Shown here: positions 12,360 to 40,534 of the stretch, in pieces
How the letters are laid out: each line of letters begins with the position of its first letter
Position numbering within the stretch: the stretch's first letter is position 1
From: Rhizaria sp. SCN 62-66
Taxonomy: Eukaryota
Direction of reading: 5' to 3'
Assembly (NCBI GenBank): GCA_001724265.1
Contig: MEDY01000430.1
Coordinates: forward strand, 1 to 43,433
DNA length: 43,433 nt
The notes under the pieces: generated by a model
Database searches by the model: none
What the model was told of the DNA's origin: nothing
What the model saw: only the letters and a program-made list of their open reading frames with translations
Translations under genes and position numbers: made by a program

Positions 12360-15300
12360 TCACATGACGACGCAGCAGCATTCGCGATCCTCGGCGTTGG
12401 GCTCCACCTTGTCCTTGTCCAGCGTCTCGCCGTCAGTCTCGCCGTCGTCGTCGCCGACGGACTTCTCGCCGCTGGCAGCGGCCGTGTCGCCAGTGTCGCC
12501 GTCGAGCGCCGTCGTGTTGTCGTCGTCGCTGTCGGCAGCGCCGGCGGCGGCGGGGGCGGCGGCCGCGACAGCGCTGTCGGACTCGGCCGCGGCGGCAACT
12601 GGAGCAGCCTTGTCACCAGCGGCGTCGGCAGCGGGAGCGGGAGCGGAGGAAGACTCGGCGCCGGCGTCGGCGGCCGCAGCGGGGGCCACGACGGGCTCGT
12701 CCTCGCCCAGATCCATCACAGGTGCAGCGACAGCATCAGCAGCGGCGTCGGCGTCGGGCGAAGGAGCAGAGGAGGCGACGGCGGGGACGGATGAGACAGC
12801 GACAGGAGCGTCTTCGTCATCGCCGAGGTCCATGATGGGCGCCTCAGAAGCCTTAGCAGCGGCAGCAGCGGCGGCGGGGGCAGCGGCAGCGGCAGGAGCG
12901 TCTTCGTCATCGCCGAGGTCCATGATGGGTGCCTCAGAAGCCTTAGCAGCGGCAGCAGCGGCGGCGGGGGCAGCGGCAGCGACAGGAGCGTCTTCGTCAT
13001 CGCCCAGGTCCATCACGGGGGCCTCGACAGCCTCGGCAGCGGCGGGGGCAGCGGACACGGACTCGGCGGCAGACGGGGCAATAGCGTCCACATCGTCGCT
13101 GCCGAGGTCCATGACCGGTTCCTCAACCTTAGCCTCAGCCTTCTTCTCCTTCTTCTCCTTCTTACTCTCCTTCTTAGTCTCCGTCTTGCTCTCCGTCTTG
13201 CTCTCCGTCTTGCTCTCCGTCTTGCTCCCCGTCTTGCTCTCAGTCTTGCTCTCGGCCTTGGCGGGGGCAGGGGCAACGGACTCGGTCGCGGCAACGTCGT
13301 CGTCGCCGAGGTCCATCATGATGGGAGCAGCCTGCTCGGCGGCCGCGGCCATGACGGGGGCAGCCTCGGCGTGAGAGGCATCAACAGCGGGCTTGTCGTC
13401 GGCGGGCTCCTCCTCGAAGGCGAAGCCGGGCGGCAGCGCGCTGGCGGACGCGGCGGCGACGGCGGGCTCCGCCTCGGCCATGTCCTCGGCAGCGGGCTCG
13501 GCGGGGCCAGCGCTCACGTCCTTGGCGTCCTCCTCGAGCGGCGGGGCGGGGGCGAGAATCTCGGCCTCGGCGGCCTGGGCAGCCTCGGCGACGGCGGTGG
13601 CGACCGATGCCACGACCGAGAGCGCGGCGACGGCGGCAGATGCGATCACAGCCACCGCAGGGTCGGCGTCGGCCTTGGCCTTGGCGTCCTCGGCCTCGGC
13701 GGCGTCGGCCTCGGCGTCGGGCGCCATCAGCTTGGGCTCGGGCGCGTCGACATGGTTGAAGCTGCTCGTGTCGACCGCCACGGCTTGGCGCGCGACAGCG
13801 TCGGGCGTGAGGTCGACGGGCGCGGCCGCCTTCTGGGCCGCAAGCTCCTCCTCAGACACGTGCTTGAGGGAGTGAGAGACGGCCACGGCAGCGGCGGCCT
13901 TGGCGACGGTGTCGGGTGCAATGACAACGGGCTTCTCGACAGGCTCAGCCGCGGCGAGACCGGACTTGTCGAAGGACGCGATGGCAGACGACAGCTCCGC
14001 GGGCACAGCCTTGGGCTCGCCGTTGTCTTCCTCCACCTCGGGCTCCGGCACGGGCTCAGGCAAGATAATCTTCTGCTCGGGCGCGTCGACGTGCTTGAAC
14101 ACGCTCTTGTCGAAGGACGCGGCCTGGTGCGCGACCACGCAGCAGCCTTCGCGACGGTGTCGGGGGTCGGCTCGGCGGCGCGATCGACGGGCTCGGCGGC
14201 AGTCAGGCCGGACTTGTCGAAGGACGCAATGGCGGACGAGAGCGCGGCAGGGACGGCCTTGGCCTCGGTGTCAGCGTCGTCGGTCTCGGCGGGGGCATCG
14301 AGCACCGGGCTGGCCTTGGCCACAGCGGCCTCGCTGGCCGTAGCAGCGACCTCGACGGTCTCCGCAGACTCGGCCTCGGCGGTGTCGGCCTCGGCGTCGG
14401 GCGCGACAAGCTTGGGCTCTGGAGCGTCGACATGGTTGAAGCGGCTCGTGTCCACGGCGGCGGCCTGGCGGGCGACGACGTCGGGCGTCAGCGTCACGGG
14501 CGCGGCCGCCTTCTGCTTGGCAAGCTCCTCCTCCGAGACGTGCTTGAGCGCGTTGGACGCAGCCAGTGCCGCAGCAGCCTTCGCGACGGTGTCGGGCGTG
14601 GGCTCTACAGCGCGCTCGACGGGCTCAGCGGCAGCAAGGCCAGACTTATCGAACGAAGCGATCGCAGATGAAAGCTCAACAGGCACAACCTTAGGCTCGC
14701 CGTTGTCCTCCTCAACCACGGGCTCCGGCACGGGCTCAGGCAAGATAATCTTCTGCTCGGGCGCGTCGACGTGCTTGAACACGCTCTTGTCGAAGGACGC
14801 GGCCTGGTGCGCGACCAGGACGCGGCCAGCGCGGCGGCGGCCTTGGCGACCGTGTCAGGCGCGATCTCGACGGGCTTGACCACGGGCGCTGAGTGCTGCA
14901 GCGCGCCGCGGTCAAAGTCGGAGATGGCCGCGGCAAGTTGGCCGGAGACGCCGGCCTTGGACTCGGAGCCAGCAGCGTCCGCGATGGGACTGGAGACAGG
15001 CGTGCTGCCGTCCTCAGCGTCGACGACGGGACTCGCCTCGGTCACGCTAATGTCGTCGGCCGTAGTCACAGCGGCTTCGGCGGCGTCGGCCTCGGCGTCG
15101 GGCGCAATGAGCTTGGGTTCGGGCGCAACCACGTGGTTGAAGGCGCTGGTATCGACGGCAGCGGCTTGGCGAGCGACGGAGTCGGGCGTGGGCTTAGCCG
15201 CAGCGGCCGCGGCGGCCTTCTGGACCGCGAGCTCCTCCTCGCTGACGTGCTTGAGGGCGTTCGACACGGCCACGGCGGCAGCGGCCTTGGCGACGGTGTC

Positions 15301-16734
15301 GGGTGCAATCACAGCGGGCTTCTCGATGGGCTCAGTAGCGGCAAGGCCACTCTTGTCGAAGGACGCGATCGCAGTGGAGAGCGCGGCTGGCACAGCCTTG
15401 GTCGCGGCCTCAGCGGGAACGGCAGCGACAACGGGCTTCTCTTCGTCCTCGTCCTCGTCCTCGTAAACGTCCTCGTACTCGTCCTCGTACTCGTCCTCAT
15501 CAGCTGCGGCATCGACAGCGTCAGCCGCGGCGTCGGGCACCATCAACTTCGGCTGAGGTGCTTCGACATGGTTGAAGCTGCTCGTATCAACAGTGGCGGC
15601 CTGGCGGGCAACAACATCAGGAGTCAACGTGACGGGCGCGGCCGCCTTCTGCTTCGCAAGCTCCTCTTCGGACACGTGCTTGAGCTTGTTCGAAGTCGCG
15701 ACGGCAGCGGCGGCCTTAGCGACAGTGTCGGGCGCAACGACGACGGGCCTCTCGACGGGCTCGGCTGAGGTAAGACCGGATTTGTCGAATGACGCGATGG
15801 CGGAGTTAAGTCCAGTGGGGACCGCGGCCTTCGCATCAGGACCAGTGGCGTCAGCGGCAGCGACAACGGGCTTCTCTTCGTCCTCGTCCTCGTCCTCGTA
15901 AACGTCCTCGTACTCGTCCTCGTACTCGTCCTCCTCAGCTGCGGCATCGACAGCGTCGGCCTTGGCGGCAGTGTCGAGCGCAACAACGACGGGCTTCTTG
16001 ACGGGCTCGGCGGCGGCGAGGCCGCTCTTGTCGAATGACGCGAGGGCGGAGGTGAGCGCGGCGGGCACAGCCTTCGGCTCGCCAGCAGCGGCACCAGTGG
16101 CGGCGGCTTGCTCCGCCTTCTTCTGAGCTTCTTCAAGGGCGGCAAGCTCGGCCTTGAGAGACTCCTCGGTGTCCTCGTCCTCGTCCTCGTAGACGTCCTC
16201 ATACTCGTCCTCGTACTCATCCTCCTCGGTCGCAGCGCCAGCGCCGGTGCTGTCAGCGGCGGGGTCGGCCGTGAGCACCAGCTTGGGCTGCGGGGCGTCG
16301 ACGTGCTTGAGCTTGTCGCGCTTGAAGCTCTCAATCTCACCAGGGAGCTTGGTGCGTGCCTCGTCCTCGAGAGTGGTGTCATAGTCGTTGTCGCTGTTCT
16401 TGTTGAGTCCGGCGATTTGATCCTTCACGCTGGCCAGGATGTTACGCGGAGAAAGTTCATCGTCACCGCTTTCAATGTCCTCAATTTCGGGGTCATGGGC
16501 GTCCTACACAAAAAAGCAAGCGGGAATTATTGAGCAAACAAAAATACAACATAATGTGATGTGAAAAGTGGCGAAACGGCTGGAAAAGAAAATGCAGCAC
16601 GAAAGCGCGTAATCTCTAAGGAGTGAGAAATGCATGGATTGCGCCGGGTCGTTAGCACCAGAAGAGTCGAAACGTACGCGAGGGCTAGCGCCAGCACCTG
16701 TCGGCGCAGAACCTAATCCAGGCTTTGCTGACAT
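12360..16734 (-). CDS. Multi-repeat WH2/beta-thymosin-like (actin-binding) protein with C-terminal CaaX (CCCVVM); two apparent frameshifts near 14817 and 14137
   Basis: Exon 1 16734-16678 (MSAKPGLG...SPR), intron 16677-16504 (GTACGT...TGTAG), then ORFs 14605..16428, 13727..14782 and 12360..14138. Modules such as EIESFKRDKLKHV, SAIASFDKSGL and FDKSVFKHVDAPEQKIILP resemble thymosin-beta EIEKFDKSKLKK. Confidence 0.75.
12807..13255 (-). repeat. Coding tandem repeats: ~75-bp units (APIMDLGDDEDAP...) and 12-bp units (KTES)
   Basis: Near-identical 75-bp units at about 12807-13015 and (CTCCGTCTTGCT)n at about 13179-13255. Confidence 0.85.
14039..14817. repeat. Identical 99-bp direct repeat (14039-14137 = 14719-14817) in the thymosin-repeat gene
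   Basis: Base-for-base match at 680-bp offset. Both frameshifts fall at the same end of this repeat. Confidence 0.9.
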
Positions 16735-17240
16735 GAACTTTCTGAAGGACACAAATGGGAAAGAATTGAAGGAGGCAAGGAGGTATGGTTCGCACTGTGA
16801 GCGGTTGGAAATTGTCACGATTTGTTGACATGTCAGTCTGCCACAAAAGCGCAAGAAAACTTATTAAGGAACAAAAATCACAACATCATAACAGTTTTTT
16901 ACAATGAAATGCTGTTTTACGACTCGTACGAAGCGTTGTTTAGCATGTTGCCTCACTGTCCTGCTTGGACTCAAACGAAACCGGGCTGTGACTGTGAGCG
17001 ATCCGAAGGAGCAACGAAAAGGATTACTTCAGCTCATCGACCCAGAGCAGAGCTACGTCGCAAGGCTTAAGCACTCGAAGTGCCACCATTTGTCCGTTGT
17101 TAAGTCTAACAGGCAAATTTTCAGGTCATAACCTTTATTTAAATCACAATCTCTATCAATAGCACCCAACAACGTCACTCATGACGATTTCTTCAACGCC
17201 CCTATTCCTCTTCTGCAACCTCGCTTGTAGCTAGCGATCG

Positions 17241-18532
17241 ATGCGTCTCCACAACCTCTTGCTCGCTGTCCTGTGCCTTGCTATCTCATCCACGGCTCTT
17301 GCTGACGGCTCCACATGCCGCGTTCTTGCCCTCTCCGGCGGTGGCGACAAGATCTCGTACGAGGTTGGCTTCCTGGACGTGATCATCAAGGAGCTCCCCG
17401 GAAAGGATGTGCGCTGGGACGTGGTCACCGGCATCTCCGCCGGTTCCATCGGCGCCGCGCTCATGTCGACCTACGACCTGGGCGACGAGAAGGCCCTTGC
17501 TGCGGACATGGTCAACTTTGTTGAGACTGTGAACGCGTCGAGCGTGTACTCGAACTGGCCCGCGGGCCCCGTCGACGCCCTCATCAACAAGCCCGCCCTG
17601 GTGGACGCGTCCCCCATGCGCACGCTGCTCGACAAGCGCATCTTCTCCCGCCCGCGCGTCACCTCGCGTTCCGTCGTTGTCGGTGCCGTTGACATGGGCA
17701 CTGGCGAGATGGAGCTCTTCTCCGAAAAGGCCCCCGACCTGGCCGCGGCCGTGCACGCCTCGGCGTCGTACCCCGGCGCGATGGCGCCCGTGCCGGTCGC
17801 TCTCGAGCGCGCCACGGGCAACGCCACGGCGCTGCTCAACGATGGCGGCGTGTGGCAGGCATTCCTGCTTGACGAGGGCATCCAACGGTGTCTCACCAAG
17901 GGCTACCCGCCGTCGAGCATCATCGTTGACCTCATCATGTGCGACCGGCTCGACTACCCCGCCGTGGACATCGGCTCCATGAAGACGCTGGGGCTCTTCA
18001 TGCGCTCCACGCTTATCGCGCGCACGCAGAGGAACTTGCGCGTGATTGCGCGCGCGAAGCGTGAGTACCCGCAGACGCTGTTCCGGTTCATGGCGCAGCC
18101 CTCCACGCCGCTGCCCAGCATGGGGCTCGAGTTCAATCACAAGTACGTCACATCACCCGAAATCATGATAGTCTTTCTCATTTTTCTTGAATGTATGCAT
18201 TATATAACTATGTTTCTTTTAAAGTCTACTGTATGTTTCACTTACGTTTTGTTTCTTGTTCTTGTTCTTGTTCTTGTTCTTGTTCTTGTTCTTGTTCTTG
18301 TTCTTGTTCTTGTTCTTGTTCTTGTTCTTGTTCTTGTTCTTGTTCTTCTTGTTCTTGTTCTTGTTCTTGTTCTATGACTGCTTGCTCTAGGGTGATGATG
18401 GAGATGATGGAGCTGGGCCGCCAGGACGCGTACAAGACCCTCGGCAGGTTTGGCGCCGATGGCAACATGGCCGCTGAGACTGAAGAGCTGCTCGAGGCCT
18501 ATTTGCGTGATGAGGACAAGCTTGAGCTTTAA
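17241..18532 (+). CDS. Secreted patatin-like phospholipase (exons 17241-18142, 18391-18532)
   Basis: Signal peptide; VLALSGGGDK glycine-rich loop, GISAG nucleophile elbow, DGG catalytic Asp. Intron 18143-18390 (GTACGT...CTCTAG) gives the C-terminus KVMMEMMELGRQDA...LEL-TAA. Confidence 0.9.
18250..18373 (+). repeat. Intronic (TTCTTG)n microsatellite
   Basis: About 20 hexamer copies inside the patatin intron. Source of the spurious VLVLVL, SCSCSC and EQEQEQ ORF tails. Confidence 0.95.
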
Positions 18533-22200: not shown

Positions 22201-24736
22201 CCTGCGGCGACGGCGGCTGGCTCCCGCCGGGCAGCGCAACCGACAGCGCCGCGGCGGCCGCGGCGGCGGCGGCGGCCGCGGAAGATGACGGGAGAAACGG
22301 AGAGGCAGACAGCGACGGCTGGGGCTGCAGCTGCTGTGGGGACAGCGGCGGCGCCTGCGGGTGCTGCGGGGGCGGGGGCCCGGGCGGCGGCGGTGGGGGC
22401 GGCGACTGCGCCCTGTCCACCCCACCAGCGCCTGCGCCAGCGGTAAGAGCCGCGCTGGAAGCCGTACTGAGAGGAGAGCTGATGCCTGGACTGGAGACGC
22501 TGGCGCTGCTCGTCCTGCCGTGTCCCCCAGCGCCCGAGTCCCCGTTACCGTAGGCGAGCGCCTGAGTGCGCGCAGCGTGCGCGCCCGCATCGTTGCGCCG
22601 CGGGTGCGTGACAGTGGTCGTGGCGCGCGCGCGCTGGAAGTAGCCCGCGCCGCCTTCGAGCCCGCGTGGCGAACCCAGCACGCTATACACGTCGCCCCCC
22701 GCGGCGCCCCCGCCCCCGCTGGCGGCGGCCCCGCTGGCGGCGGCGGGCGCGGGCTTGCGCATGACAATCGCGGTTGCGCCCTGCGCGAACGAGTCGACGA
22801 CAAGGTCAACCCAGAACGGGTGGCTCTTAAAGCGCTGGAACGAGTCGTTCTTCATCAGCCGCTCAACCTCCTTGCCCGCGCGCAGGAGCGCGTCCATGGC
22901 GTTCTCCACCGGCCCGCCCAGCTCGTAGTCGAAGTCGAAGTCGTCCAGCAGCGCCGCGTCGTCGAACTCGTCCCCCCAGTCGTCGTCGGTCATAGCGTGT
23001 CCATGGTCGTGCGCACGGTCGCTGGGGAAGAAGTCGCCGCCGTCGGTGGCGGCGTCGTCATCGCCCTCGGGCAGCGGCGGCGGCGGCGGCGGTGGACTCA
23101 GCTCGCCGTCGAACTCAGGAGACAGCGCGGCGTCGCTCGAGAGGCCGTTGCTGTTGCCCTTGCCAGTGTTACTGGCGGCGTTGCCGGCGTCCGCGCTTCT
23201 CTGGGGGTAGAAGTACGTCACTCCGTCGTCTTCGTCGTCGTCCTGGGCCACATCGGGGCCCGTGGTCGCGGCCGGCAGCGCGTCCAGCGTGTCGGCATCG
23301 CCCTCCGGCAGCACGCCCTCCGGCAACGCGCCCATCGCCGCCGCGGCGGCCGCCTCCATGTAGGACGCGCCCGTGCGCATCTCCCAGTGCGCGATGCGGG
23401 CCTCGATGCGCTCGATGCGCGCGTCGGCGGCGGCGAGCGCGGCCGACAGCTCGGCCACGGCCGCCGCGGTCGCCGCAGAGGCGCGCGAGTCGACGTTAAC
23501 CTCGCGTGCGGCCTTGGCGCCGATGTATGTGTGCGCTACCATGGTGGCGAGCGCGGCAAAGTCGGTGACGAGCGCGGCGACCTCGTCCGTGAGCCCGAAG
23601 TGCAACCCCGCGGCCCGCTCGCGCGCGCGCACGACGCAGATGTCGCTGTACAGCGCATACAGCACCTGCACCTCGTGCCAGAAGTCGACGTTCTCCTCCG
23701 AGTGCTCGAGCCGCAGGAGCCGCGCGAAGTGGAAGAGCCCCACAGGATGCGACAGCACGGCGAAGAAGTCGGCCCCGTCGGCGAGCGCGAAAGCCACGGC
23801 GCGCGTTTTGGGGGAATACTTGGCCGCCGCGTTCAGCGTCGGCGCGCCCACAGGGACAGGGGCGTGCGTCGCGGCGCGCGCGCGGGGCGTCGCCGCCACC
23901 GACGACGGCAACACGCCAGTCGCAGTTGCCGTCGCAGTTGCTGCTCCGTGACCGTGACCGTGGCCATGACCGTGGCCGTGGCGGGCTGGGGTCCGGGCCG
24001 GCGTGGCCGCGGCGGCGGCTGCGGCAGCGCCGTTGTTGGCGTTGAAGCCGGCGGCAGAGCGCACGGGGGTCTGCGCCGGCGCGAAGCCGGGACGCGTGTA
24101 ACCTGGCGAGTGTCCTGATGACGACGCTGAGGCTGATGCAGCCGAGGCGGCTGCTGCTGCTGAGGTGATAGGCCCGGGGACGCGGGGCAGCGACGAAGTA
24201 ACCGTGGGCGGCGAGAAGAACCGTCCGCTGCCCGTGCGCCCCGTGCCAGCACCAGTGCCCGGCCCTGCTGCTGCTGCTGCTGCTGCTGCTGTTGTTGTTG
24301 CGCCTGCCCCGGCGCGGGCGGTGAGAGGTGCGGCCGAGCCCGCGTGCGCAGTGTACCCGCGCGCGAACGGAGACTGCAGCGGGCCGTGGCCGTGCGCATG
24401 CGACGCGGCGGGGCCGCCGCTGCTGCTGGCCGCGGCGGCCGCGACGGAGAAGGCTGATGAGGAGGAGGCCGACGTGGCCGTCATCAGAGGCGGGCGCTCG
24501 GGGCCTGCTGCGCGCGGGGACGCGAGGAACAGTGCAGAGGGAGCAGTCGCACGGAGGTGCGGAACAATGAGCTCGGGTCCAGCATTGCGGCGGGACGCGG
24601 CAGTGGGCGAGGAGAAGGACGGCGGCGGACTCAAGTTAGAAGCTTGCGAGCTGCCAGCGGATCCCGTCGTCGTGTCACGACTCGCCGTGTTGAAGGTCTG
24701 CAGCAGCGTCGGGCGGGACTAGAACCGCTGTGACAT
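19265..24736 (-). CDS. RGS-domain protein with polyproline tracts (~1823 aa if the in-frame TAG at 24721-24719 is read as sense)
   Basis: RGS motifs FFAVLSHPVGLFHFARLLRLEHSEENVDFW, YIGAKAAREVNVDS and EVERLMKNDSFQRFKSHPFW (22811-23767). ATG at 24736 is in frame via one TAG; TAA stop. The start is less certain than the domain. Confidence 0.8.
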
Positions 24737-25483
24737 ACTGCCCACACTAAAATGCGATTGAAACACAAGGATAGCGTGACAAGAAGACTGAGTGTCAGGT
24801 GTGGCACGCGATAATTGCCTCAAATCAGTTCGAAAGGGGCGCGTGTTGCCGTTTGGCTTTGTGATCAGAATATCTCTTTCAAAAATCCGTCAATGTAAAT
24901 GTGAAATTTAAAAACAAGACAAACCAGAGATATAGTCTAACATAATTCAATTATATCGTCGTTACAGAGAGTAGACATGCTGATTTCAGCAAGATTGGCA
25001 GCGGACTGGGAGCCGTTGAGACTGCGACTGGTCGAGCATACGAGGACACATGGGAGAGAGATTTGAGACTGTATTACAGGCGTCTATGAAAGCTTAATAC
25101 CCACAGAACGAGAGATAGATACAAGATTTGCCCCTCTTTCACATCCGGGCACCGCGCAATTCAGCGCGCGAGCCCCCGGGCAGGCGCTGTCGGAGTTATG
25201 AGACGAGCGGAGGGAAGAGGGACGAGGGGCAGCAGACTAATGTAGCCAGGGCGACCGGTCTCGGTCGTCGCGCCACGCGAGCAGGCAGCGCGCTCAACAG
25301 TGCTGAGTAGGGAGCTGGCGTGCGGCGGACGACGCGGCCGATCTAGAGAGCCCTCCAACCCAGGGCGCGGCGCGGGCGCGTCGCAAGCAAGGGCGGGACA
25401 GGGTCTCATCAGGAATAGAGAATGATTGAGGGGACAAGGAGTGGAGGAGGACGGAGTCAGCATGCGCGCGTTGCACGTCGCGC

Positions 25484-25922
25484 TTACTCGCTGGCCTGGG
25501 CAAAGGGGTTGGGGATCTCCTTGAGCCCCTCGGTGGGCGTGATGGTCACCACGGCCGTGCTGCGGCAGACGACGAAGCCCAGCGCGCGAGTCTTGTCGCT
25601 CGTCACCAGCGGGTCGCTGGGGTCGCGAAGGCGCTCCACGGCGTTGTCGAGAACGATGTTGATGCGCTTGTCCCAGCCCTTGAGGATGCCGGTGACTTCG
25701 CGGCCGCCGATGAACTTGACCATGACCTCCTGGTCGATGTAGCGGTTGAAGTCCACCGCGGGGGGCGCGCGGGCCTTCTGCTCGTGGGGCAAGAGCGGAC
25801 AAAGCAGATGGAATATAGCGCCACAAAGAAAAGTTAGCGGGAATAACTGGGCAGAGATAGAAAGAAACTCACGTAGTGATTGTTATGAAACATACCTTAG
25901 TGGAGTCAGCGTCCTCAGACAT
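25484..25922 (-). CDS. LSM7: U6 snRNA-associated Sm-like protein LSm7 (exons 25922-25896, 25777-25484)
   Basis: DFNRYIDQEVMVKFIGGREVTGILKGWD..INIVLD...LRDP...TRALGFVVCRST...EIPNPF is the Lsm7 signature. Intron 25895-25778 (GTATGT...GCAG). Confidence 0.92.
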
Positions 25923-26585
25923 GCGAACGAGCTGGGGAAACGAGAAGTGGTGGAAGGGTCGTTGTTGAGTGAGAATCGTGAGTATTCGAAGTACGATTTC
26001 AAAGAGAATCTCGACTCCGGGTGCACAAATATAGAAAAAGTCAGATATCTAAGCTCAACGGCATATACCATATTTCAACAGCAGACAGTTGCAGCGGATT
26101 CTGATATCACTGCTCAGCTTTGAAAATGGCTGATCTGAGTGCGATGCTGGACGGGGCCCGTTGGCCGCTCGTGGTGGCTGACCAAGGCTCGCCAATGCAC
26201 CGTGCAAAAATACATTTCGTACTCAGGCAGTCTGAGAACAAAGACGATAAGTATAAAAACAATATGTATGTGATAAAATATAGATGTATTCAAGTGGCAG
26301 TAAACCTTTCCCTCTTAAAAAAAGAAAGCAATAACCAGGATTGCTTCAATAATTCCGCAATGCGCCGTCCCATCGCTCGTCTCACAAGCACGCACCATTA
26401 CATGCCGTCATAGGCAGGCGTGACGCTGCTGCAGTCAGCGGGCTAACCGTGCGGCACAGTTGAACCTACCGACTGCTACAAAGCGCATGCGCATGGCGTA
26501 TGAGGGAACGAACGAGGGCTGTGGACACACAGAAAATGATTATGAAAAAATATGATTTAACATGAATGCTAATGTAACCTTACGA

Positions 26586-26879
26586 CGCGTGGCGGCACTG
26601 CGCTCTAGTTTCCTCGCTCCACAGCAACAATAACAACGTACAAATAGCAACGACGAGCCGCGATGACAATATCACGAGGATTTGTTTGTTCGAATCTGCC
26701 GTGCCGGTAGCGTAGCCTTGACAGCCAGGACAAACATCGTCGTGATATGCGGACAGAAAGGACGTAGCTTGATCCTTAAAGATATCGAAGTGTGACCATA
26801 TCGCGTTTTCGTTGCAGAGTTGTACACGTTGTTATTGTTGCTGTAGAAGGAGTAAACAAGATGCGTTGCCGCCGCCGCG
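26586..26879. other. Intergenic imperfect inverted repeat / long hairpin with nested inner stem
   Basis: Perfect 19-bp core 26621-26639 with 26826-26844, imperfect extension to arms of ~75 nt, inner stem 26669-26690 with 26729-26748. Confidence 0.8.
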
Positions 26880-27279
26880 CTCCCATAATAGTTAAGACAC
26901 TTCGCTGCTTGCTACTGGTCTCGATGTAAATAGAATGAAACAAATGTAGTAGTGGTAATATTCGTAGTAAAAAAGATCGTGAAAAAAATGATATGACACC
27001 GTGAAAAGCCATATCATAAAAAAAGGCAGTCAAGAGCCGGAGCTATTTCATGTTCTTGTCCGTGCTCTTCCACTCGCGCGCTGGCTGCTGTACAAGCGCA
27101 AAGTGCGCCAACAAATCTCTGTCTGACTACCGTGGTCGATGCTTATAAATGCTGTTATGAAGTTCATTGAGACAGCAAATCATACAACAACGCAATATCA
27201 AACAGAATTAAGAAAGAACAACCACAATCGTGAATGTTCAACACGCGCACCAAGCCGACCCCAAGTCACATTTGTACAT

Positions 27280-30200
27280 TTAATTGTGGTTACCGTTGTT
27301 GCCGCTGTTGACATTCTGCCCATTGTGGCCGTGGTGCCTGTTGTCAACGAGCTGGAGACTGCCGTAGCCGCCGTAGCCGTGCCCGACGGTGGCCGCGGCG
27401 AGCCCGGCCTCGTGGCGCAGCGCCTCCAGGTCGTAAGCGCTCCAGTCGGTGACGGTGCCGCTGGGCGTTACGTTGACGGACTGGTTGCCGAGCATGGCGA
27501 GCAGCGCCTCGTGCTCGCGCGTCTCCTCGGCCTCGCGCTCCGCAACCACGCGCGCCTGCTTCACCCAGTCCAGCGTGGCGAGGTAGTAAGACAGCGCGCT
27601 GCACACGAACATGATCGCCACGACCATCGCAATCCACTGCCCGAACAGCCCCCAGCCGCGCGCCGTAACCTCGCACAGCTCCGCAGTGTGCAGGAACACG
27701 ACCGTGGCGCCTGCGTGCTGGGCCTCGGCCGCCGCCGCGTGGGAGACCACGGCCGACGCGGCCAGCCCGGCCTCGAGACCCACGGTCGCGTTGCCCGTGA
27801 AGACGTAGCCGGCCACCTCCGTCACCGGCGCGGCGAGGGTCGTGCTATGGGCGAGGGTGGCGTTGGCGGCCGCGTGCACCGCCGTCGTAGCGGTTTCGGG
27901 CGTCGTCGCCGAAGTGATGATGTCCTGTTGAGACGGTAAACAACAACAAAAGAAGAACATTATACACGTGAGCTAGGAATCAAGAAAATACCTGAAAATT
28001 GATTGATAAAATACAATAAAACAAACAATGGAAACCACACAATTATCATACATCCAAGAATGATGCACACAATACAACCCTCTTGCAAAAGTGGCGCGAG
28101 AGATGTGACGGACCTTGACGTCGCTGAGGGGGATGCTGCGGAGGTGCGAGCCGGTCTTCATGGCGAGCACGTACGCCAGGGGCAGCCCGACGCCCCAGTA
28201 GGCAAACGAGTAGACGTAGAAGCCGACGTCCTGAAGTCCGCAGCCGCGCAGCACGCCCGCGAGCATGCCTTGGAGCCCGTCAAAGAAGCAGTAGACGCAG
28301 ACGAGGGGCAGCGCCGTGGCCATGGCATGGAGCACGGCGGGCGAGTCGGTGAAGATGCGCCCCACGCCTTCGGAGAAGGCCCACACGCCCAGGCAGATGA
28401 TTAGTTCGAGCGCAATCGTGAGCCCGAACGAGACCTTGGCCGTGAAGCGCGCGTCCGCCGGCTTGTCCGAGCCCAGGAGCGCGCCGACGCGTGCCGAGGT
28501 GACGATGGCGAGCGCCATGGGCGCCATGAAGAGCAGGATCATGATGTTGAAGATGATGCTCTGCGCGCCCAGCACGGCCGAGCCTTGGAGGCCGGAGATC
28601 GCGGACTGCAGCTCCAGCCCCCACCACTCGGCGCACAGCATCGCCGTCGAGGGCAGCGCGTACGAGAGGAATTCCCCCCAGTCGCGCAGCGCGGCGCGCG
28701 ACCAGCGGCTCCAGGTTTTCTTGTAGAAGCCCGAGACGTAGAGGTAGCCCAGCGCGGCGGCGAGCATGCCCCAGGCCGTGCACACCGTGGTGTATGCGAT
28801 ACCGATGTAGCCCATCTGCAACCAGACGACAAAGATGACGTTGCAGACGAGCGTAATAGCCACGCCCGTGCACGTAATATACATGACCGGGATGGTGTTG
28901 TTCTGCGCCTGCAGGTACCGCTTGATCGCGTCAAGATATGACATGGCCGGGATCGCCGCTGCCGTGGCCTTGAGGAAGCGTCCCGCGTGCGCGCACGTCT
29001 TCTTGGGAAAGCCCAGCATGCGCAGGATCGGCTTGCCGTTGAGGCGCAGCGCGATCATGGGCCCCATGAGCAGCGTCACGATGAGCAGCGCGCGCTGGAA
29101 GATGTGGCCCACGCGGCGGTAGTTTTTGGCGCCGAAGGCCTGCGCGATTAGAGTGTCCATGGCGCCCATCATACCCATCACCAGCGACAGCGTCGTCACG
29201 TTGATGAACAGGATGCCCAGCGCGCCCGCGGCCAGCTCTTCCTCGGTCAGGTGGCCCAGGAAGATGAGGTCCACGATGTCCACCAGGTGGTCCGCGAAGA
29301 AGCCCAGGATGAGGGGGAGCGCGACGGTGAGCTGCTCGCGGACCTCGGTGACCACGGATGGCGCGAAGAGCTCGGCCAAGTACGACAGCGCGGCGTCGCG
29401 CGAATTGGAGAGCTTGTCCATGAGCGAGGGGCGGCGCACATAGCGCATCACGCCGTCCGGCCGCGCCAGCAGCGCCGCCGCCTCCTGAGTTCTAGGCCCC
29501 CCATGAGTACCCAGCTCGGGGTCACCGGTTCCAGCCGCGGCGGCAGCGGCGAGGACGGCGTCGGCGTCGGTGGCGGCAAGCGCGGCCGACATCGCGGCGT
29601 GCACCAGCGCCATCTCCGCCGCGTCTTTGCCGCCGCTGTCCTTGCCAGCTGCGCTGTTGCTGTTGCTGTTGCTGTCCGAGTGCAGCCGCAGCGTCTGGCC
29701 CTTGCCGCCGCCGCCCGCGCCGGCGGCCGCCGCGTTGGCCGTGGCCGTAGCGACGGCGTCGAGCGCCTCGGGTCGCGCGATGAGGTGGTCGGCCAGCACC
29801 TGGAGTTGCTGCTCGCGGCGCTCCGCCGCGGCCACGGCGGCGGCGTTCGCGGCCGCCAGCGCAGGCCGCGCCAGCGGCAGCAGGCGCGAGATGGGTGCCG
29901 CCGCGGCGCGCGGGTACAGCGCAGGCTCGTGCGGCACCGCCGGCGCGGCAGTCACAGTCGTGGTCGCCGTCGTGTTGATGTTGGCGGTGATGTTGTTAAT
30001 GTTCGTGTTTGAAGAGGCGGCCGAGACGGGGGGCGCGCGGTAGACGGCGGTGATGCCGTAGGCGTAGTCGTCGGCGGGGATCAGGCCGGCACGCGCGGCG
30101 CGGGCCTCGGAGAGCACGCGGCCGACGGGGAGTGTCCCGCTGCCGTCGTCCTCGTCCTCGTCCTCATCGTCGTCATCGTCATCATCGTCGTCGTCATCGA

Positions 30201-30507
30201 GGGAGGACGAGCTCACCGACGGCTGCGACGCCTCCGCGGGCAGCTATGCGGGCGCTGCGTTCGAGTTGGAGAGAGAAGGCTGGGTCCCCTATGTGCTCAG
30301 TGCCGCTACAGGCGCCGCGGGGGCGGCCGGGGCGACAGGGGCGGAGGGGGCGGCAGCGAGGGCGGGGGAGGAGGTCAGACCCTCTACGGCCGGCGAAGAG
30401 GGCGCGACGGGGGCCGTGGGGGCGGACAAGCCAGGCGGCTCGGAGTCCTTGGGGGACTCCATGCAGACAACGTCTTGGGGGCGCACGGTGCGCTTTTTGC
30501 GGGGCAT
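27280..30507 (-). CDS. MATE family multidrug/toxin efflux transporter (exons 30507-28114, 27924-27280; two in-frame TAGs in the N-terminal extension)
   Basis: MATE motifs FLGHLTEEELAAGALG, MDTLIAQAFGAKNY, RYLQAQN, EWWGLE, ARVGALLG, GVLRGCGLQ, YWGVGLP and GLFGQW...LDW. Phase-0 intron 28113-27925 (GTCCGT...AACAG). ATG 30507 is in frame through TAGs at 30291-30289 and 30246-30244. Confidence 0.88.
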
Positions 30508-30933
30508 AGCTGGAGAGGAGCAGGAGGAAATTCAAAGCGAGCACGAAGGGGTTGTGACGAAGGCATGAGGAGCGCACGGAGAGGGTCAAAAAGGGCTAGT
30601 GTATCATTTGTGGCGAAATCATTAAATAGAATTCAACACTTGTCATATCAGTGAGTGCGTTTTTACTTCCGAACACCGTATTGATGGCCACCCTGAGGTA
30701 GGAGTCGGACTCCAATTTGAAGCGCGGGTCGATTGACGGGCGAAGCAAAAAAAGCAAAGCCGCGTGCTCACGCCACTTGACTGTACTCAACATTCAGCAG
30801 GTGCGATCGCAGCAGAACAAATACAAATTGCGTTAAAATGCGATTTTTTAAATAAAGTAGTAAGTGGGCTATACATAAAAAGCGGGTTTTCCGAGTTAAG
30901 CGCCGGTTACACATACGAAAACTGTGAATTAGT

Positions 30934-33371
30934 TCAAAACTCGGACTCGAAATCAAAAGCATTCTCGCCCCCTTCGGCCGCGTCCCCCTCGCCATCCTCC
31001 TCCTCGGCGTCGTCCTCGGACTCGTACAGCACGTCGGTGTGGTCGAACGCGTCGGGGACGGCGCTGGCGAAGGCGTTGTGGGCCGTGATGTGCTCGACTA
31101 ACAGCTCGGCGACGCTCGCCATGACGTGGCTCTGCAGCCGCGCCGACGCCGCCAGCACCGCCTCACCGCCCGCTGCCGCGCCAGCGCCCGCCGCCGTGCT
31201 AGTGGCAGTGCCCGCACCGCCCACAGTCGCATCGGGGCCATCGGCTGCTGCAGCCTGGCGGGGGAAGAGCTGTGCGACGTGCGCGGTGACCTCGAGGTGC
31301 AGCGAGGCCGGGATGGCTTCGTCGGAGGGCGGCAGCAGCCGGAGATCGGGACCCGACCGCCGCTCCTGCTGCGCCGTCACCGAGCGGACGGTCTCCTCAA
31401 CCGCGACGGCGCCGCCGCTGACGGGGTCCGCCTGCTGGGTGACTGTGCGCACGGGGACCGAGGACGGAACCGCGGGGTCACGGGTTACCTCGTTACCGCC
31501 GTCGGTCTAGTCACTGCCATCGGTGTTATCAGCGACGATGTTGTTGCTGTTGCTGTTGTTGCTAGCGTCGTGGTTGGGGCGGGAGACAGGGGAGCTGGAC
31601 GCGGTGGCGGGCTCAGTGGAAGGCTCAGGAGAGTGCTCAGCGGCATCAGACTGCCCGGCCACAGCTGCAGGCGAAGGCTCGGTCTCAGTTGCGAGGCCGC
31701 CAGTGACAGCCCGGTAGACGTTGTCGAGATCGTTTTCACATGTATCGCAGATGTTGTCTTCGGCAGTCGAGTTGCCAGCAGCAGCCTTAGCGTCGACATT
31801 AGCAGTATCAGCAGCGTTGTTGTTGTCATCGTTGTTGTTCTTGTTGTTATTGCTAAGGTTGCCGTTTGTGCTGTTGGTGCCGATTTCGTTGTCGGCGCAG
31901 GGTGTGTTGCCGCCGCTGAACGTGTAGACGTCGTCACCCACGCTCGCGTCAATGACGGCGGCGTTGTTGCTGCCAGCGCCGTCGTCCGCGCTGTCACTCG
32001 CAGAGCGAGCGACATCAGCGTCGGCACAGTCGGAGTCAGCGTCCGACTCGGACTCGGGCTGCGACACAAAGCCGTTGGCAGCCTCGTTCTCAGCCTCATT
32101 TTCAGTATCTTGCTCGACAGCAGTACGCTGCGCCTGAGTCTCAGCCCCAGCCTCCGCCTCTGCCTCTGCCTCGGCCCGCATCTCGGCCCTGAGCGCGCTG
32201 CGCTGCGCCTCGGCGGCCTCCTCGCCAGCCAGGACCAGTCCCTCGGCTGCGACCTCGGCGTCCGACGCCCACCAGAAGCGGAACGAATCCTCAGCCTCGG
32301 CCTCCGCAGCCGCAGCGGCGTCCGCAGCGGCGTCCGCAGCGGCCTCATCTGCGTCAGCGTCGGCGTCACCGCCGTCGGCGGCGGTGGCGGCGGCGGTGGC
32401 GGCGGCAGTGGACTGGGGGTCAAGGTAGAGGGACTGCGGGTCAGCGTCGCGGGAGCTGATGATAGTCGCAACCACGACAGGTACAGCCGCGGCCGCAGCA
32501 GCAGCCGCAGACTCCTCGCTCGGGGCCGCAACGCTCGTCGGACTCGAGCTCGAGCTTGATGTCGAGTTGCCGTTGACGCTCGAGCCCGCGCCATGAGCGC
32601 GGGCGGCCATGGCGTTGGCAGCCGCAATCGCGAGCGCCGTGGCAGAGGCCAGGGCTGCGTCAGTAAGCTCAGCGGCCGTCTCCTCTCCAGCCCCAGCCCC
32701 AGCCCCAGCCCCAGCCCCGGCCTCGGCCGCGGTCGCCGCAGCTGTCACACCAGCATTTATCGCAGCAGCCGAGCCCCCAGTGTTGCCCTGCAAGAGCGCG
32801 TCGCGACGCCGCTGCAGCCGCAGCAGCGCCTCCCGGACCCTGGCGGCGCTCGCGGCCCACTGGCCGTCCGCCCCGTTCGCCGCCGCTGCGGCCACCAGCG
32901 CCGCCGCCGCCGCCGCCGCCGTCGCACCAGCGCCCTGCTGTTGCGGTTGAGCCTGCGTGACTGCCGCTGCGAGTGCGGCCGCCGCCGCGGCGGTGGCGTC
33001 CCGCGCGGCCTCCGCGGCGGCGACCTCCGCGGGCGGCCCCGCGTGGCCGCGGGCGACGTTGCGGTCGTCCCACTGCGCCTCGCGCGAAAGCTGCACCTGC
33101 ACGCGTGTGCGGCGCGCGACCTCGACGCCCACGCGGCGGCAGCGCGGGCCGCAGCAGAGCCAGCCGGAGACGGAGAGTGAGAGGCGGAACAGCGGCCGCG
33201 AGCGCAGCAGCCGCGGCAGCGACAGCACGACGACCGTCGACACGATGTCCGCGCGCAGCTGCACGTGCTGCTGGTACGCGCCGGCGGGAGCGTCGCTGGA
33301 GCGGGTGCGGGAGTCGCCGTCGCCGTAGTCGTAGCCGTAGCCAGGAATGCTGGCGTTGCCGCTGCTGCCGC

Positions 33372-33404
<33 letters not shown>

Positions 33405-36400
33405 CGCTCTGGGCGTTGCGCCGCGCCTGCCACACGCGCGCCTCCTCGCGGGCCCGCGCCAGCGCCGCGGCCAGCAGCTCATGCGACTCCGGCCGAGAAC
33501 CAGCGCCCGACTGCAACTGCGACCGGTGAGACTGTAGGGGCGAGCGCGACTGCGCCTGCGGATGCGGCGTCTGCGTGCGCTGCACTGCGCCCGTGCCGTC
33601 CCCCACCAAGTCCTCATTCGCACTCGCAGATGCACTGGCGCTCGGCGCGCTGATGATGGTGCCCCGGGCGGGCACAGAGTCAGCGTCGGCATTGGCAGGG
33701 TAGGTACAGTTGGCATCCACAGCTACAGCGACGCCGCGCACGCGACGAGGGCGGGCGAGGGCTGCGCTGGTGGTCGGGGACAGGAGCAGCTCCTCGCCAC
33801 CGTGGCCGTAGCTGTGGCTCGCGTCGCTGCGATCGCTCTGCGCAGCGGGTGTGGCTCCGCCGGTCAGCAGCGACAGCGTCGACGACAGCGACGACGAGGT
33901 TCGAGAGTGACCGTGAGCAGAACCTGCCTGGCCGTGAGCAGAGTGACCGTGGGCCGAGTGACTGGGAGCGGGGTACAGCGTGGCAAGCGCAGGACCCCAG
34001 GGGAGGCGGCGCCAGTGAGCCGTGTCGGCCAGGGCCACGGCGTCGGCGTCGTCACTTGCAGGGACCGGAGGACGCGCGCCCCCACTGCCGCGACCCCGTG
34101 CGCCGGCACTCGTCGCCCTCAGAGTCAGAGTCGCAGTTGCACTGGTACTTGTTGGAGTATTCTCAGTCGCAGTCTCAGTCTCAGTCGTAGTGCTGCTTTT
34201 AGTGTCGTTGACAGCGCTTAATGCAGCAGCAGCAGCAGAGACATCTGCAGCAGAGCCGCTCGTCAGCGCAGCATCAGCCTCTGATGCTCCTGTTGCCACA
34301 GTTGCAGTTGCTGCGTCAGCCTCTGGCGTAGCTGCCGCGGCCACAACCTCTGCAGTGACAGGCTTGGTCTCTGTGCGCGTCGCCATCGCCCCAGCCGCAG
34401 GGCTCGCGTCAGCGTTGCCACCCGTCACACTGCTCCTCGTAGTTGCCCTCTCAGCCAGCGCGGGCTTTCTCTGAGCAGCGGGCCGATCCTGCTCCTTCTT
34501 CCGCGCAGCCCGCTCTCGCTGGTGCGCGGCCCAGGCCAGCGCCTCCGCGGCCCGGGTCTCTGCGGCATCGGCGTCAGCGCGCGCCGCAAACATGGTCCAC
34601 CGCTGCACGTCGTAGTCAACGTCGTCACCGGCAGTAGCCTCCCTCGTGTTAGCCCTCGCACTGCTACTTGAGTCAGCAGCAGCAGCAGGGGCGCTCGCGC
34701 TCGCGCTCGCGTCTGCGCTCAGACTCGAGCTCAACTGGGGGCTCGCGCCTCCCCTCTCGCCCTCGCTGCTGCCGTCCTCTCTGCTGCCGTCGGCGCCGCG
34801 ACCGGCGCCGTGACCGCTGCCGCGCGAGAAGTCGAGCGCGCGGCACAGCAGCATCGTGCGCCGCCGCTCGCGCCACTCTTGCGCGCGTGCCTCCTCGCGC
34901 CGCGCCACGTCCCCCTCGCCCCCCGCACTTGCACTCGCACGCGCACTCACACTGGCGCCGGCTCTGCTGGAGCTGGCGCCGCCCTGCGGGAGGAGCGGGC
35001 CGCGGCAGAGCGGGCACGTCGAGGCGTGGCGCGCCAGCTCCAGCAGGCACGCGGCGTGCAGCAGGTGGCCGCAATGCAGGCGACGCACGCCCGCGTCGAG
35101 CGCAGTGAGGCAGATGGCGCATTCGTCCGCCACCGGCGGCGGCGGCAGCGGCGGCGGGCCCGGCAGCGGGGGCGCGAACCCAGCCGAGCGCGCGCCATCT
35201 CTGTCGTTGCCATCGATATCATCATCGCTGTCACTGCCAATAACATCAGCATCCGCACTGTCGTCACCATCGCCATCGCCATCGTCGTCATTGAGGCCGA
35301 GCTGTTTCTTGCGATCGCGCCTCTCCTGCCGCCTCTTGACCACCCGTTGCTGCCTACGCCACGCCAGCCTCGCCGCGAGCCGCTCCCTGGCAAGGTGCAT
35401 CCGGACGGCGGCCAGGGCGTCCGCCTCGACCGCGGCCCGCTCGGCCTCGGAGACGAAGGAAGGCGCGAGCAGCTGGTCCGCAGGCAGCTCGGGCACCGCG
35501 GCGAGCGCCTCGGCGTGGCGCAGCGAGCTCAGCAGCACGCGCGCGCGCGGCGCCGTGAGCGCGGCGGCGGCGCGCAGGAAGAGCCACGGCGCGACGAGTA
35601 AGTCGACGCGGAACGGGTACGCGTACGCTAGTGACGGCAACAGCAGAACGGCCGGGTCCGTCAGCGGCGGCAGCACGAGGGCGCACTCGCGGCACAGGCG
35701 CGAGAGCGAGTCACCCAGCGCCGCGCCTTGAGACGGGTCCAGCAGCGCGCGGAGCAGCCCCGCGAGCGCCGCGGGCACCATAGGGGCGACGCGGGGGACC
35801 GCGGCGTGCGCCAGCTCGACCGCGAGGTCTGGCCACAGCTGCTCATCGTCGTCGGCGGCGGCACTCCGATCGGCGCCTCCCCGGTCGCCGCCGTTGCCGT
35901 TGCCGCTGCCGTTGCGGTCGTTGTCGGCGCTGGCGCTGGCCTGCGCGAGCGCGTCGCGGAGCGCCGCGTCGGCCGCGCCGGCAGCCGCGCGGTCAGCGGC
36001 GCGTGCAGGCACGAGGATGAAGGCGGCGGACAGGTGGGCCAGCGCCGAGAGCGCGGCAGCGGTGACTTGCACGCTGAGCTCCAGCCCCACGATGAGCGCC
36101 GGGAGCAGCCCTGTGGGCGCGAGCAGCGTGGCGGCAGCGGCGGCGAGCGCAAGGTTGACGCCGAACGAGACGAGGCTGACGGAGGTGCCTCGGTGCAGCA
36201 GCTGCCGCAGCCAGAGCCGGCCTCGAGCCTCGAGCGGCAGCAGAGCGCGCTGCGCCGGAGAGAGCCAGCGCTGCTCGCCCGGCCGCGCCAGCGAGTCGCC
36301 GGGGTAGATCAGGTGGCCGTGCGCGGCCGCACTCGCACTCACACCTGCAGTGGCGCTCGCACCCGCAGGAGCAGCGGCGGCAAGAGAGGGGCGCGGAGGG

Positions 36401-36945
36401 AGGTCTGGGTCGGCACGGGAGAGCAGCGCAGCCTCGTAGAAGGCCAGCGCAACGGCAGCGGGCAGGCGCGCAAGTGAGGCAAGCGACGCAACGCAGAGCC
36501 AGGCGGCGAGCTCGTAGGCGTCGCCCGTGGCGAGGTAGATGAAGAGGCAGAGCAGGAGCCGGCGTAGACCGTGTGCGCCCCCGGCCCCCGCGGCGGCCAC
36601 GGCGGCGCGCGGGCGGGCGTAGACGCGCGCAAGCCGGGCAATAAGCGCGTAGCGCAGCACGCGGTCGGCGGTGAGTACGACGAGCAGCAGGTGCAGCGGC
36701 ACGGCGAGGAAGTGGGTGACGACGCGGGACACAGGCCAGTGCAGCGCGGAGACCGAGTCCCAGGTGCGGAGGAAGAGTAGCGTCAACGCGCCCAGTAGCG
36801 CCGCGATCAGGCGCAGCGAGAACGGAAACGACGGCTAGTCTGCCGAGGCGTCTTGCCGCGCAGCAGCAAGAGCAGCGGCAGCAGCGGCGCTGGCAGCCGG
36901 CTACTGCTGCTGCGGCAGTGGCAGTGGCTGTGGCGCCGGTCTCAT
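30934..36945 (-). CDS. Multi-pass membrane RING-H2 E3 ubiquitin ligase (Hrd1/gp78-like layout), ~2003 aa with three in-frame TAGs
   Basis: Hydrophobic N-terminal segments; RING-H2 CAICLTALDAGVRRLHCGHLLHAACLLELARHASTCPLC (35121-35005). One frame runs from ATG 36945 to TGA 30934, broken only by TAG at 36903-36901, 36837-36835 and 31509-31507. Confidence 0.8.
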
Positions 36946-40053: not shown

Positions 40054-40534
40054 GGCGACGGACGGACGGACGGACGGACAGACAAGTTAATAAGTTAAGT
40101 TGTGAGCGAACGAGCAAAAGCACAGATGCACACATCACACGAGCTTGGAGCTATGAGTGAAGCGATTTAACACACGATATGTAGTCATAACACACAACAC
40201 ACCAGATTGGAAAAATAAGTCATTTTGATTTTGATCCTTGCGAGAGATACGCATGCGCGTAAAAATAAACTCTATTTACTTTTCTTCAAGTGATACAGAC
40301 TGGCTGTTAACATTGACTGTAACCTGATGTGAAATAGTATTTTTGCGAGAGGTTATTAAAGATAACGTTGTTTATATAGAAGCTTCAGATTAAACTGTCT
40401 GAAGCAGATATAGAGTAGTACTAGCGTACACATTATGAAACAAAAAGAGACTTGAGAAACCTAGCATAACATTTCGAATGAAAAAAACAACAAAACATAG
40501 ATATAATACTACAATATCCCTGACTCCACCGTCT

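Follow-up and report, generated by a model that had tools for sequence, protein, structure and literature searches.

In-frame TAG codons in a RING-H2 gene and a MATE gene of an uncultured GC-rich eukaryote, and a candidate sense reading of UAG

To our knowledge, nuclear codes in which UAG alone has been reassigned are found in only a handful of lineages. Two described variants, in Rhizaria sp. exLh (UAG as leucine) and in Iotanema spirale (UAG as glutamine), terminate genes with 56 UAA and 15 UGA and with 104 UAA and 15 UGA codons, respectively (PMC5304391). As far as that account describes them, UAG is frequent in both, stands at conserved leucine or glutamine positions, and had its meaning inferred from alignments (PMC5304391). 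The DNA analyzed here (the window, a whole stretch of 43,433 nucleotides) is like both variants, within what the same account covers, in carrying in-frame UAG, in never using UAG as a terminator, and in ending genes more often with UAA than with UGA (7 TAA and 4 TGA). It differs from them, as they are described there, in that UAG takes up at most 6 of ~11,000 codons and is seen only in unconserved segments, within very GC-rich coding sequence.

Among ciliates, UAG has been reassigned on its own in phyllopharyngeans (PMC11687900) and is decoupled from UAA in Oligohymenophorea sp. PL0344 (PMC10553269). This decoupling is the feature that the window shares with the ciliate UAG codes, to the extent that these sources set them out. 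The window is unlike ciliates, whose genomes are typically AT-rich, in its GC3 of ~0.85 and its AT-rich introns of 95-258 nt, and no ciliate marker was seen in it. In PL0344, UAG reportedly specifies glutamate and UAA lysine. In Blastocrithidia nonstop, all three stops are reassigned, UAR being read as glutamate (PMC12153298). The presence of in-frame UAG in nuclear genes is common to that organism and the window, but here, set against what is described for Blastocrithidia nonstop, coding frames on the sense strand are never broken by TGA or TAA, and both of these codons terminate genes. Trypanosomatids also contrast with the window in that its genes lie on both strands and have cis-introns. 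Finally, premature UAG stops are restored by A-to-I editing in filamentous ascomycetes (PMC11156358, PMC10776026), a system that resembles this one, as characterized in those papers, in that an ORF is interrupted specifically by TAG in the genome while the gene is functional. A literature search for code changes in wastewater eukaryotes returned nothing relevant.

The window, its gene content and its introns

Near-identical DNA of the window is present in metagenomic runs of bioreactors, wastewater and activated sludge from several studies, and the source is an uncultured, GC-rich, intron-bearing eukaryote of wastewater and bioreactor metagenomes. The prokaryote genome collections that were scanned gave no match. 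Pfam matches comprised eukaryote-type RING finger, patatin, RGS, UCH, LSM and MatE domains, one UCH domain being split over exons, and a search of the ESM Atlas with the USP exon matched generic eukaryotic UCH clusters only. These eukaryote-type domains, together with nine spliceosomal introns, show the window to be nuclear DNA from a eukaryote with introns. Coding sequence in it has a very high GC content, with GC3 of about 0.8-0.95, and its intergenic DNA and introns are AT-rich. An Rfam search of the window gave 0 matches, a tRNA scan found 0 tRNA genes in it, and an eRF1 gene was likewise not seen. We built the gene models of the window ourselves from codon scores.

The nine clear introns (between 10782 and 39359) are 95-258 nt long with GC of 0.33-0.54, and have an AT-rich body and a YAG acceptor after a pyrimidine tract. 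Their 5' splice sites are GT[ACT]CG in 9/9, with GTACGT in 5/9. Such uniformity of the splice sites is unusual, the introns are AT-rich and lie within very GC-rich exons, and these features could help to identify the lineage. One of these introns, in the MATE gene (27925-28113, minus strand, 189 nt), preserves the frame and holds a TAG (27975); under a code in which TAG is sense it mimics coding sequence, and is a trap for code inference on this organism.

Several other features of the window were observed. A (GTTCTT)n microsatellite lies within an intron of the patatin gene (18240-18370), and a (GGAC)n run directly follows the TAA of the USP gene (40056-40080). A repeat-rich gene at 12360-16860 (minus strand), with recurring FDK..KHV-type motifs and without a Pfam match, shows +2 frame changes near 14835 and 14150, at homologous places ~690 nt apart, where the old frame remains open while the new frame turns coding. 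There is no consensus intron donor at either change, and the 47- and 32-nt GT..AG spans that would mend the frame are unlike the introns of the same organism; the changes could come from a tandem repeat that was assembled wrongly, from a frameshift that was duplicated, or from a more unusual event. In addition, RNA contigs of one run (X5, a poly(A) metatranscriptome) and DNA contigs of another (X4) deviate from the window at 23717-23816 and 25462-25742. All 12 contig differences in the RGS gene are spaced at three-base steps, as are most of those in the LSm gene. This pattern hints that the same samples also contain sequence under purifying selection from a related strain, a paralogue or another species.

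The RING-H2 gene and the reading frame past TAG 31509

The RING gene lies on the minus strand. Its proposed full coding region (30934..36945), that of a multi-pass membrane RING-H2 protein, runs from ATG 36945 to TGA 30934 over 2003 codons, three of them in-frame TAGs, and scores as coding (768) in one frame throughout, with no frame change over 6 kb. Under translation table 11, the ORF of this gene is 31507..36786 and ends in TAG 31509-31507, which is codon 1813 of the proposed region and has coding-like sequence in the same frame on both sides. The two other TAGs are codon 15 (36901..36903), which follows CAG CAG CAG, and codon 37 (36835..36837), two codons ahead of the first hydrophobic helix. 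Residues 554-595 of the table-11 ORF (35002..35127) match the zf-RING_2 family (PF13639) over its full length (1-44 of 44; E 2.6e-9; 37.6 bits against a cutoff of 27.3), and the Cys/His zinc ligands of this finger mark the product as a probable RING-H2 E3 ubiquitin ligase. It may share the Hrd1-type architecture of membrane-anchored RING-H2 E3 ubiquitin ligases, in which a RING-H2 finger comes after a set of hydrophobic helices at the N-terminus. Unlike Hrd1-type ligases, the product has a very long low-complexity C-terminal region of ~1400 residues, and no sequence homologue of its N-terminal membrane and RING part was found among proteins of 1101-3506 residues.

The 5' end of the gene bears on the reading of its first two TAGs. 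ATG 36945, the last upstream ATG and the only usable one, is in frame and is followed by the TAGs at codons 15 and 37; the next in-frame ATG (35781) comes 335+ codons later, past all of the membrane helices. No consensus intron donor was found in the 500 nt upstream, a stretch bounded by the divergent USP gene, nor was a GTNCG donor found in 37300-36800.

Beyond TAG 31509-31507, the RING frame stays open for 190 codons (30937-31506) and then meets TGA (30934..30936), the proposed true terminator. The initial annotation had held that coding sequence carries on in frame past the TAG with an unchanged GC-rich codon style, and both parts of this claim held up. The extension has GC of 0.78, 0.53 and 0.84 at the first, second and third codon positions, a pattern shared with the sequence that precedes the TAG, and its codon log-odds are +108 in frame compared to -103 and -140 off frame, with +22 for the best antisense frame. 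The frame-specific codon score has a z of 9.5 against 5000 shuffles, and the GC3-GC2 periodicity a z of 6.8. Per codon, the extension scores 0.57, equal to exons kept out of training (0.53-0.77), and a GC-rich non-coding control, after the stop of the LSm gene, reaches at most 0.02 with no positive frame. Across TAG 31509 the frame score neither dips nor switches frame. Two further claims were borne out: that the extension closes at TGA 30934 with AT-rich DNA after it (GC is 0.71-0.78 after TAG 31507, and 0.36 in the 90 nt after the TGA), and that an alternative start cannot account for it, its first in-frame ATG being codon 129 (31122).

These values also bear on the idea that the extension does not encode protein and owes its open frame to chance in a GC-rich sequence. 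The window does contain many spurious long ORFs, and 3% of composition-matched shuffles stay open, so that an open frame is by itself only mildly unlikely. However, the coding signal, in both codon score and periodicity, goes far beyond chance, and most untranslated flanks in the window are AT-rich. A chance opening is accordingly refuted as far as sequence statistics reach, and we regard it as extremely improbable.

The extension is rich in alanine, glycine and threonine, of low complexity and predicted to be disordered, and belongs to no known family. A short part of it is predicted to be helical, and it ends at the C-terminus in acidic and aromatic residues. Its ESM Atlas model has a pLDDT of 0.50, with structural neighbours at low TM only and no usable feature match. 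Searched against 1.84 billion representatives, it retrieved only its own fragment and one low-complexity match (E 4e-7), and word-index searches at near and longer lengths returned nothing beyond itself. At most, the extension can be described as the disordered tail carried by a RING-H2 protein that is anchored in the membrane. Public protein collections (P0002 and P0004) hold it as a free-standing 172-residue "protein" that starts at GTG. Prokaryote-style gene finding produced this fragment on 7 + 1 contigs, the cluster members are identical, and the stand-alone entry is an annotation artefact caused by the in-frame TAG.

Contigs from other runs cover the region. A DNA contig of another study (X3) spans 30204-31909 with 0 differences, thereby confirming TAG 31509 as well as TAG 30291 and TAG 30246 of the neighboring gene and excluding assembly error; the X4 DNA contig over 30452-31281 likewise shows 0 differences. 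At the RNA level, poly(A)-library contigs cover several parts of the RING gene. One X5 contig (30614-31012, 0 differences) follows the genome colinearly from the final 79 nt of the extension through the TGA and into 320 nt of AT-rich 3' flank, and on this evidence the 3' untranslated region is placed at 30614..30933. In three bins of intergenic DNA (24499-25109 and 25721-26942), the depth of X5 was zero. RNA is thus present 500-900 nt downstream of the TAG, which partly answers the possibility, named in the initial annotation as counting against an extension, that polyadenylation occurs just after 31507. Among the RNA contigs listed, which are the longest pieces, none is shown bridging 31507, and none has a variant or joint at the TAG. 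Runs X6-X9, with a small share, were left out as evidence.

A further possibility is that the TAG sits within an intron. Three TAGs of the window were rejected as sense codons on this ground, TAG 27975 lying within the 189-nt MATE intron, TAG 10896 within a 145-nt intron, and TAG 16506 being itself an intron acceptor, and for this reason an intron reading of TAG 31509 was taken seriously. Such an intron would have to be short, GC-rich and in frame, and its ends would depart from the consensus; one example is the 72-nt GT..AG span 31515-31444. In-frame GT..AG pairs are indeed present, a similar 66-nt span would remove both TAGs of the MATE gene, and the true MATE intron, also in frame with its TAG, demonstrates that this kind of artefact occurs in the window. 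Such pairs are nevertheless expected by chance, and the candidate donors do not fit the nine real introns, all of which are GT[ACT]CG, AT-rich and at least 95 nt long. No GTNCG donor is present within ~400 nt upstream of TAG 31509, the sequence around it has GC of 0.62-0.72, and its coding score remains above zero. In addition, no in-frame pair was found that removes both N-terminal TAGs of the RING gene, and no such joint appears among the RNA and DNA contigs listed. Thus TAG 31509 does not look like part of a spliceosomal intron of this organism's type, and we consider a short non-consensus intron very unlikely.

In-frame TAGs and terminators across the window

The neighbor of the RING gene, a MATE transporter gene (27280..30507, minus strand), also carries in-frame TAGs. 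Its model starts at ATG 30507, exactly at an AT-to-GC boundary from which the frame scores as coding, passes through TAGs 30291-30289 and 30246-30244, contains the intron 28113-27925, and ends at TAA 27282-27280. The frame is coding on both flanks of the two TAGs and is kept over 3.2 kb without a frameshift. The next ATG (29613) lies 211 codons downstream, at the end of a stretch with GC3 of 0.88-0.93. Used as the query of a metagenome scan, the MATE exon matched a single 2.3-kb contig identically and four further sequences as distant homologues, with at most 36% identity.

All stops of the window were put through an unbiased, symmetric scan that retained any stop lying between two coding-like stretches of 40 codons in its own frame. 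Four sites were returned: TAG 31509, TAG 30291, TAG 30246 and TGA 2408. The TGA is antisense to gene A, and sense strands thus gave 3 TAG, 0 TGA and 0 TAA. When stops following 80 strongly coding codons were examined (n=12), only TAG 31509 was followed by coding-like sequence (+32, the others at most 6). In terminator use, the 11 gene models divide into 7 TAA, 4 TGA and 0 TAG, gene C/D stopping at TGA or TAA. In other eukaryotes, TAG typically ends a fifth to a quarter of genes; with that share, taken from other eukaryotes, 0/11 TAG ends would occur with a chance of ~0.04-0.09.

In-frame TAGs are nonetheless very rare, and five of the six candidates come no later than codon 90 of the gene concerned, unlike a uniformly used sense codon. 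All are in low-complexity or unconserved stretches and none is at a conserved residue; the MatE, UCH, patatin, LSM, RGS and RING domains of the window contain no in-frame TAG. Hints as to the amino acid conflict, since the adjacent copy of an 18-nt tandem repeat has GAG in the place of TAG 31509, and TAG 36903 follows a CAG run. The sixth candidate is in the RGS gene (minus strand), where TAG 24721 is codon 6 after ATG 24736 and the next ATG is 24484. The stretch down to ATG 24484 is weakly coding-like (0.13 per codon), which makes this TAG doubtful; it may be a sixth in-frame TAG or belong to a tiny upstream ORF. Four other stops were set aside: TAG 17160 and TAG 17232, which sit in the 5' leader of the patatin gene, and TAG 25835 and TGA 16531 (both plus strand), which are antisense to real exons.

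The restriction of interrupting stops to TAG has to be read against the local codon usage, in which 73% of random nonsense substitutions give TAG. This observation alone therefore cannot distinguish reassignment from mutation, and TAG 31509 might be a true stop that arose by recent nonsense mutation, leaving a protein 190 residues short and an extension that is an undecayed relic. The GAG in the adjacent tandem copy would fit a single G-to-T change, the disordered tail without homologues may be dispensable, and the samples are near-identical, so one clone could carry the TAG. However, such a mutation does not explain the two TAGs ahead of the first membrane helix of the RING protein or the two N-terminal TAGs of the MATE gene, it leaves the 5' coding parts of both genes without a usable AUG under the standard code, and it sits poorly with an undiminished coding signal in the extension and with the absence of TAG among the 11 terminators. 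Nonsense changes amount to 2.1% of random substitutions, and five of them by drift would bring many other lesions; the 6-kb and 3.2-kb frames without a frameshift, and the poly(A)-library RNA contigs over several parts of the RING gene, contradict the view that the two genes are decaying. We judge a recent nonsense mutation to be unlikely.

Alternatively, UAG may be a stop that is read through, in a programmed or leaky manner, giving short and long isoforms. The coding signal that persists downstream of TAG 31509 speaks for this, and read-through extensions are typically disordered tails. Against it, there are five sites in two genes, and four are near the N-terminus, where stopping would abolish the whole protein. 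When the 120 nt that follow the TAG and the remaining TAG regions were folded, the predicted RNA structures were no more stable than those of shuffles (z of -0.5 to -1.6, and +0.9), and TAG as a terminator is seen in 0/11 genes. Read-through of a UAG that otherwise terminates appears quite unlikely.

The restriction of interrupting stops to TAG would also be produced if the genomic TAGs were corrected in mRNA by A-to-I editing (UAG to UGG), as documented for premature UAG stops in fungi, within the coverage of the papers cited (PMC11156358, PMC10776026). Among the RNA-run variants listed, no T-to-C change (plus strand) is present at 31508, coverage there not being displayed, and the TAG lies outside any hairpin loop in the predicted fold. 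The density of sites, 2-3 in each of 2/11 genes, is also far higher than in the fungal cases as those papers present them, and nothing in the window points to editing or to a fungal source. Editing therefore seems highly improbable here.

UAG as a possible sense codon

We lean towards the reading that UAG is decoded as sense in this organism, with UAA and UGA as the remaining stops; the initial annotation had implied reassignment or read-through, and this broader proposal is partly supported and is the likeliest reading. It is strengthened by the TAGs of the MATE gene, by the N-terminal TAGs of the RING gene, by the 0/11 TAG ends, and by the exclusion of introns and assembly error. The standard code, moreover, provides no AUG for the clearly coding 5' parts of these two genes. 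Under a sense reading, UAG would be read as an amino acid, whether by reassignment or by very efficient suppression, and UAA and UGA would terminate; we infer that ribosomes insert an amino acid at UAG. The RING-H2 membrane protein would be translated from ATG 36945, through UAG codons 15, 37 and 1813, to TGA 30934, and the 190 codons would be its real C-terminal tail, disordered and acidic.

The scarcity of the codon raises the possibility, to which we give somewhat less than even credence, that UAG has been captured as sense at an early stage, at ~0.05% of codons and in weakly constrained segments, while UAA and UGA serve as stops; the organism would then be a naturally occurring halfway stage, in a high-GC genome, of the reassignment of a stop codon. 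If a sense reading is correct, standard-code gene callers truncate or split proteins of this organism, and the window would add a further independent UAG-only case, and thus a data point on stop-codon capture. It would be an unusual one, a strongly GC-biased genome in which the new sense codon is still scarce.
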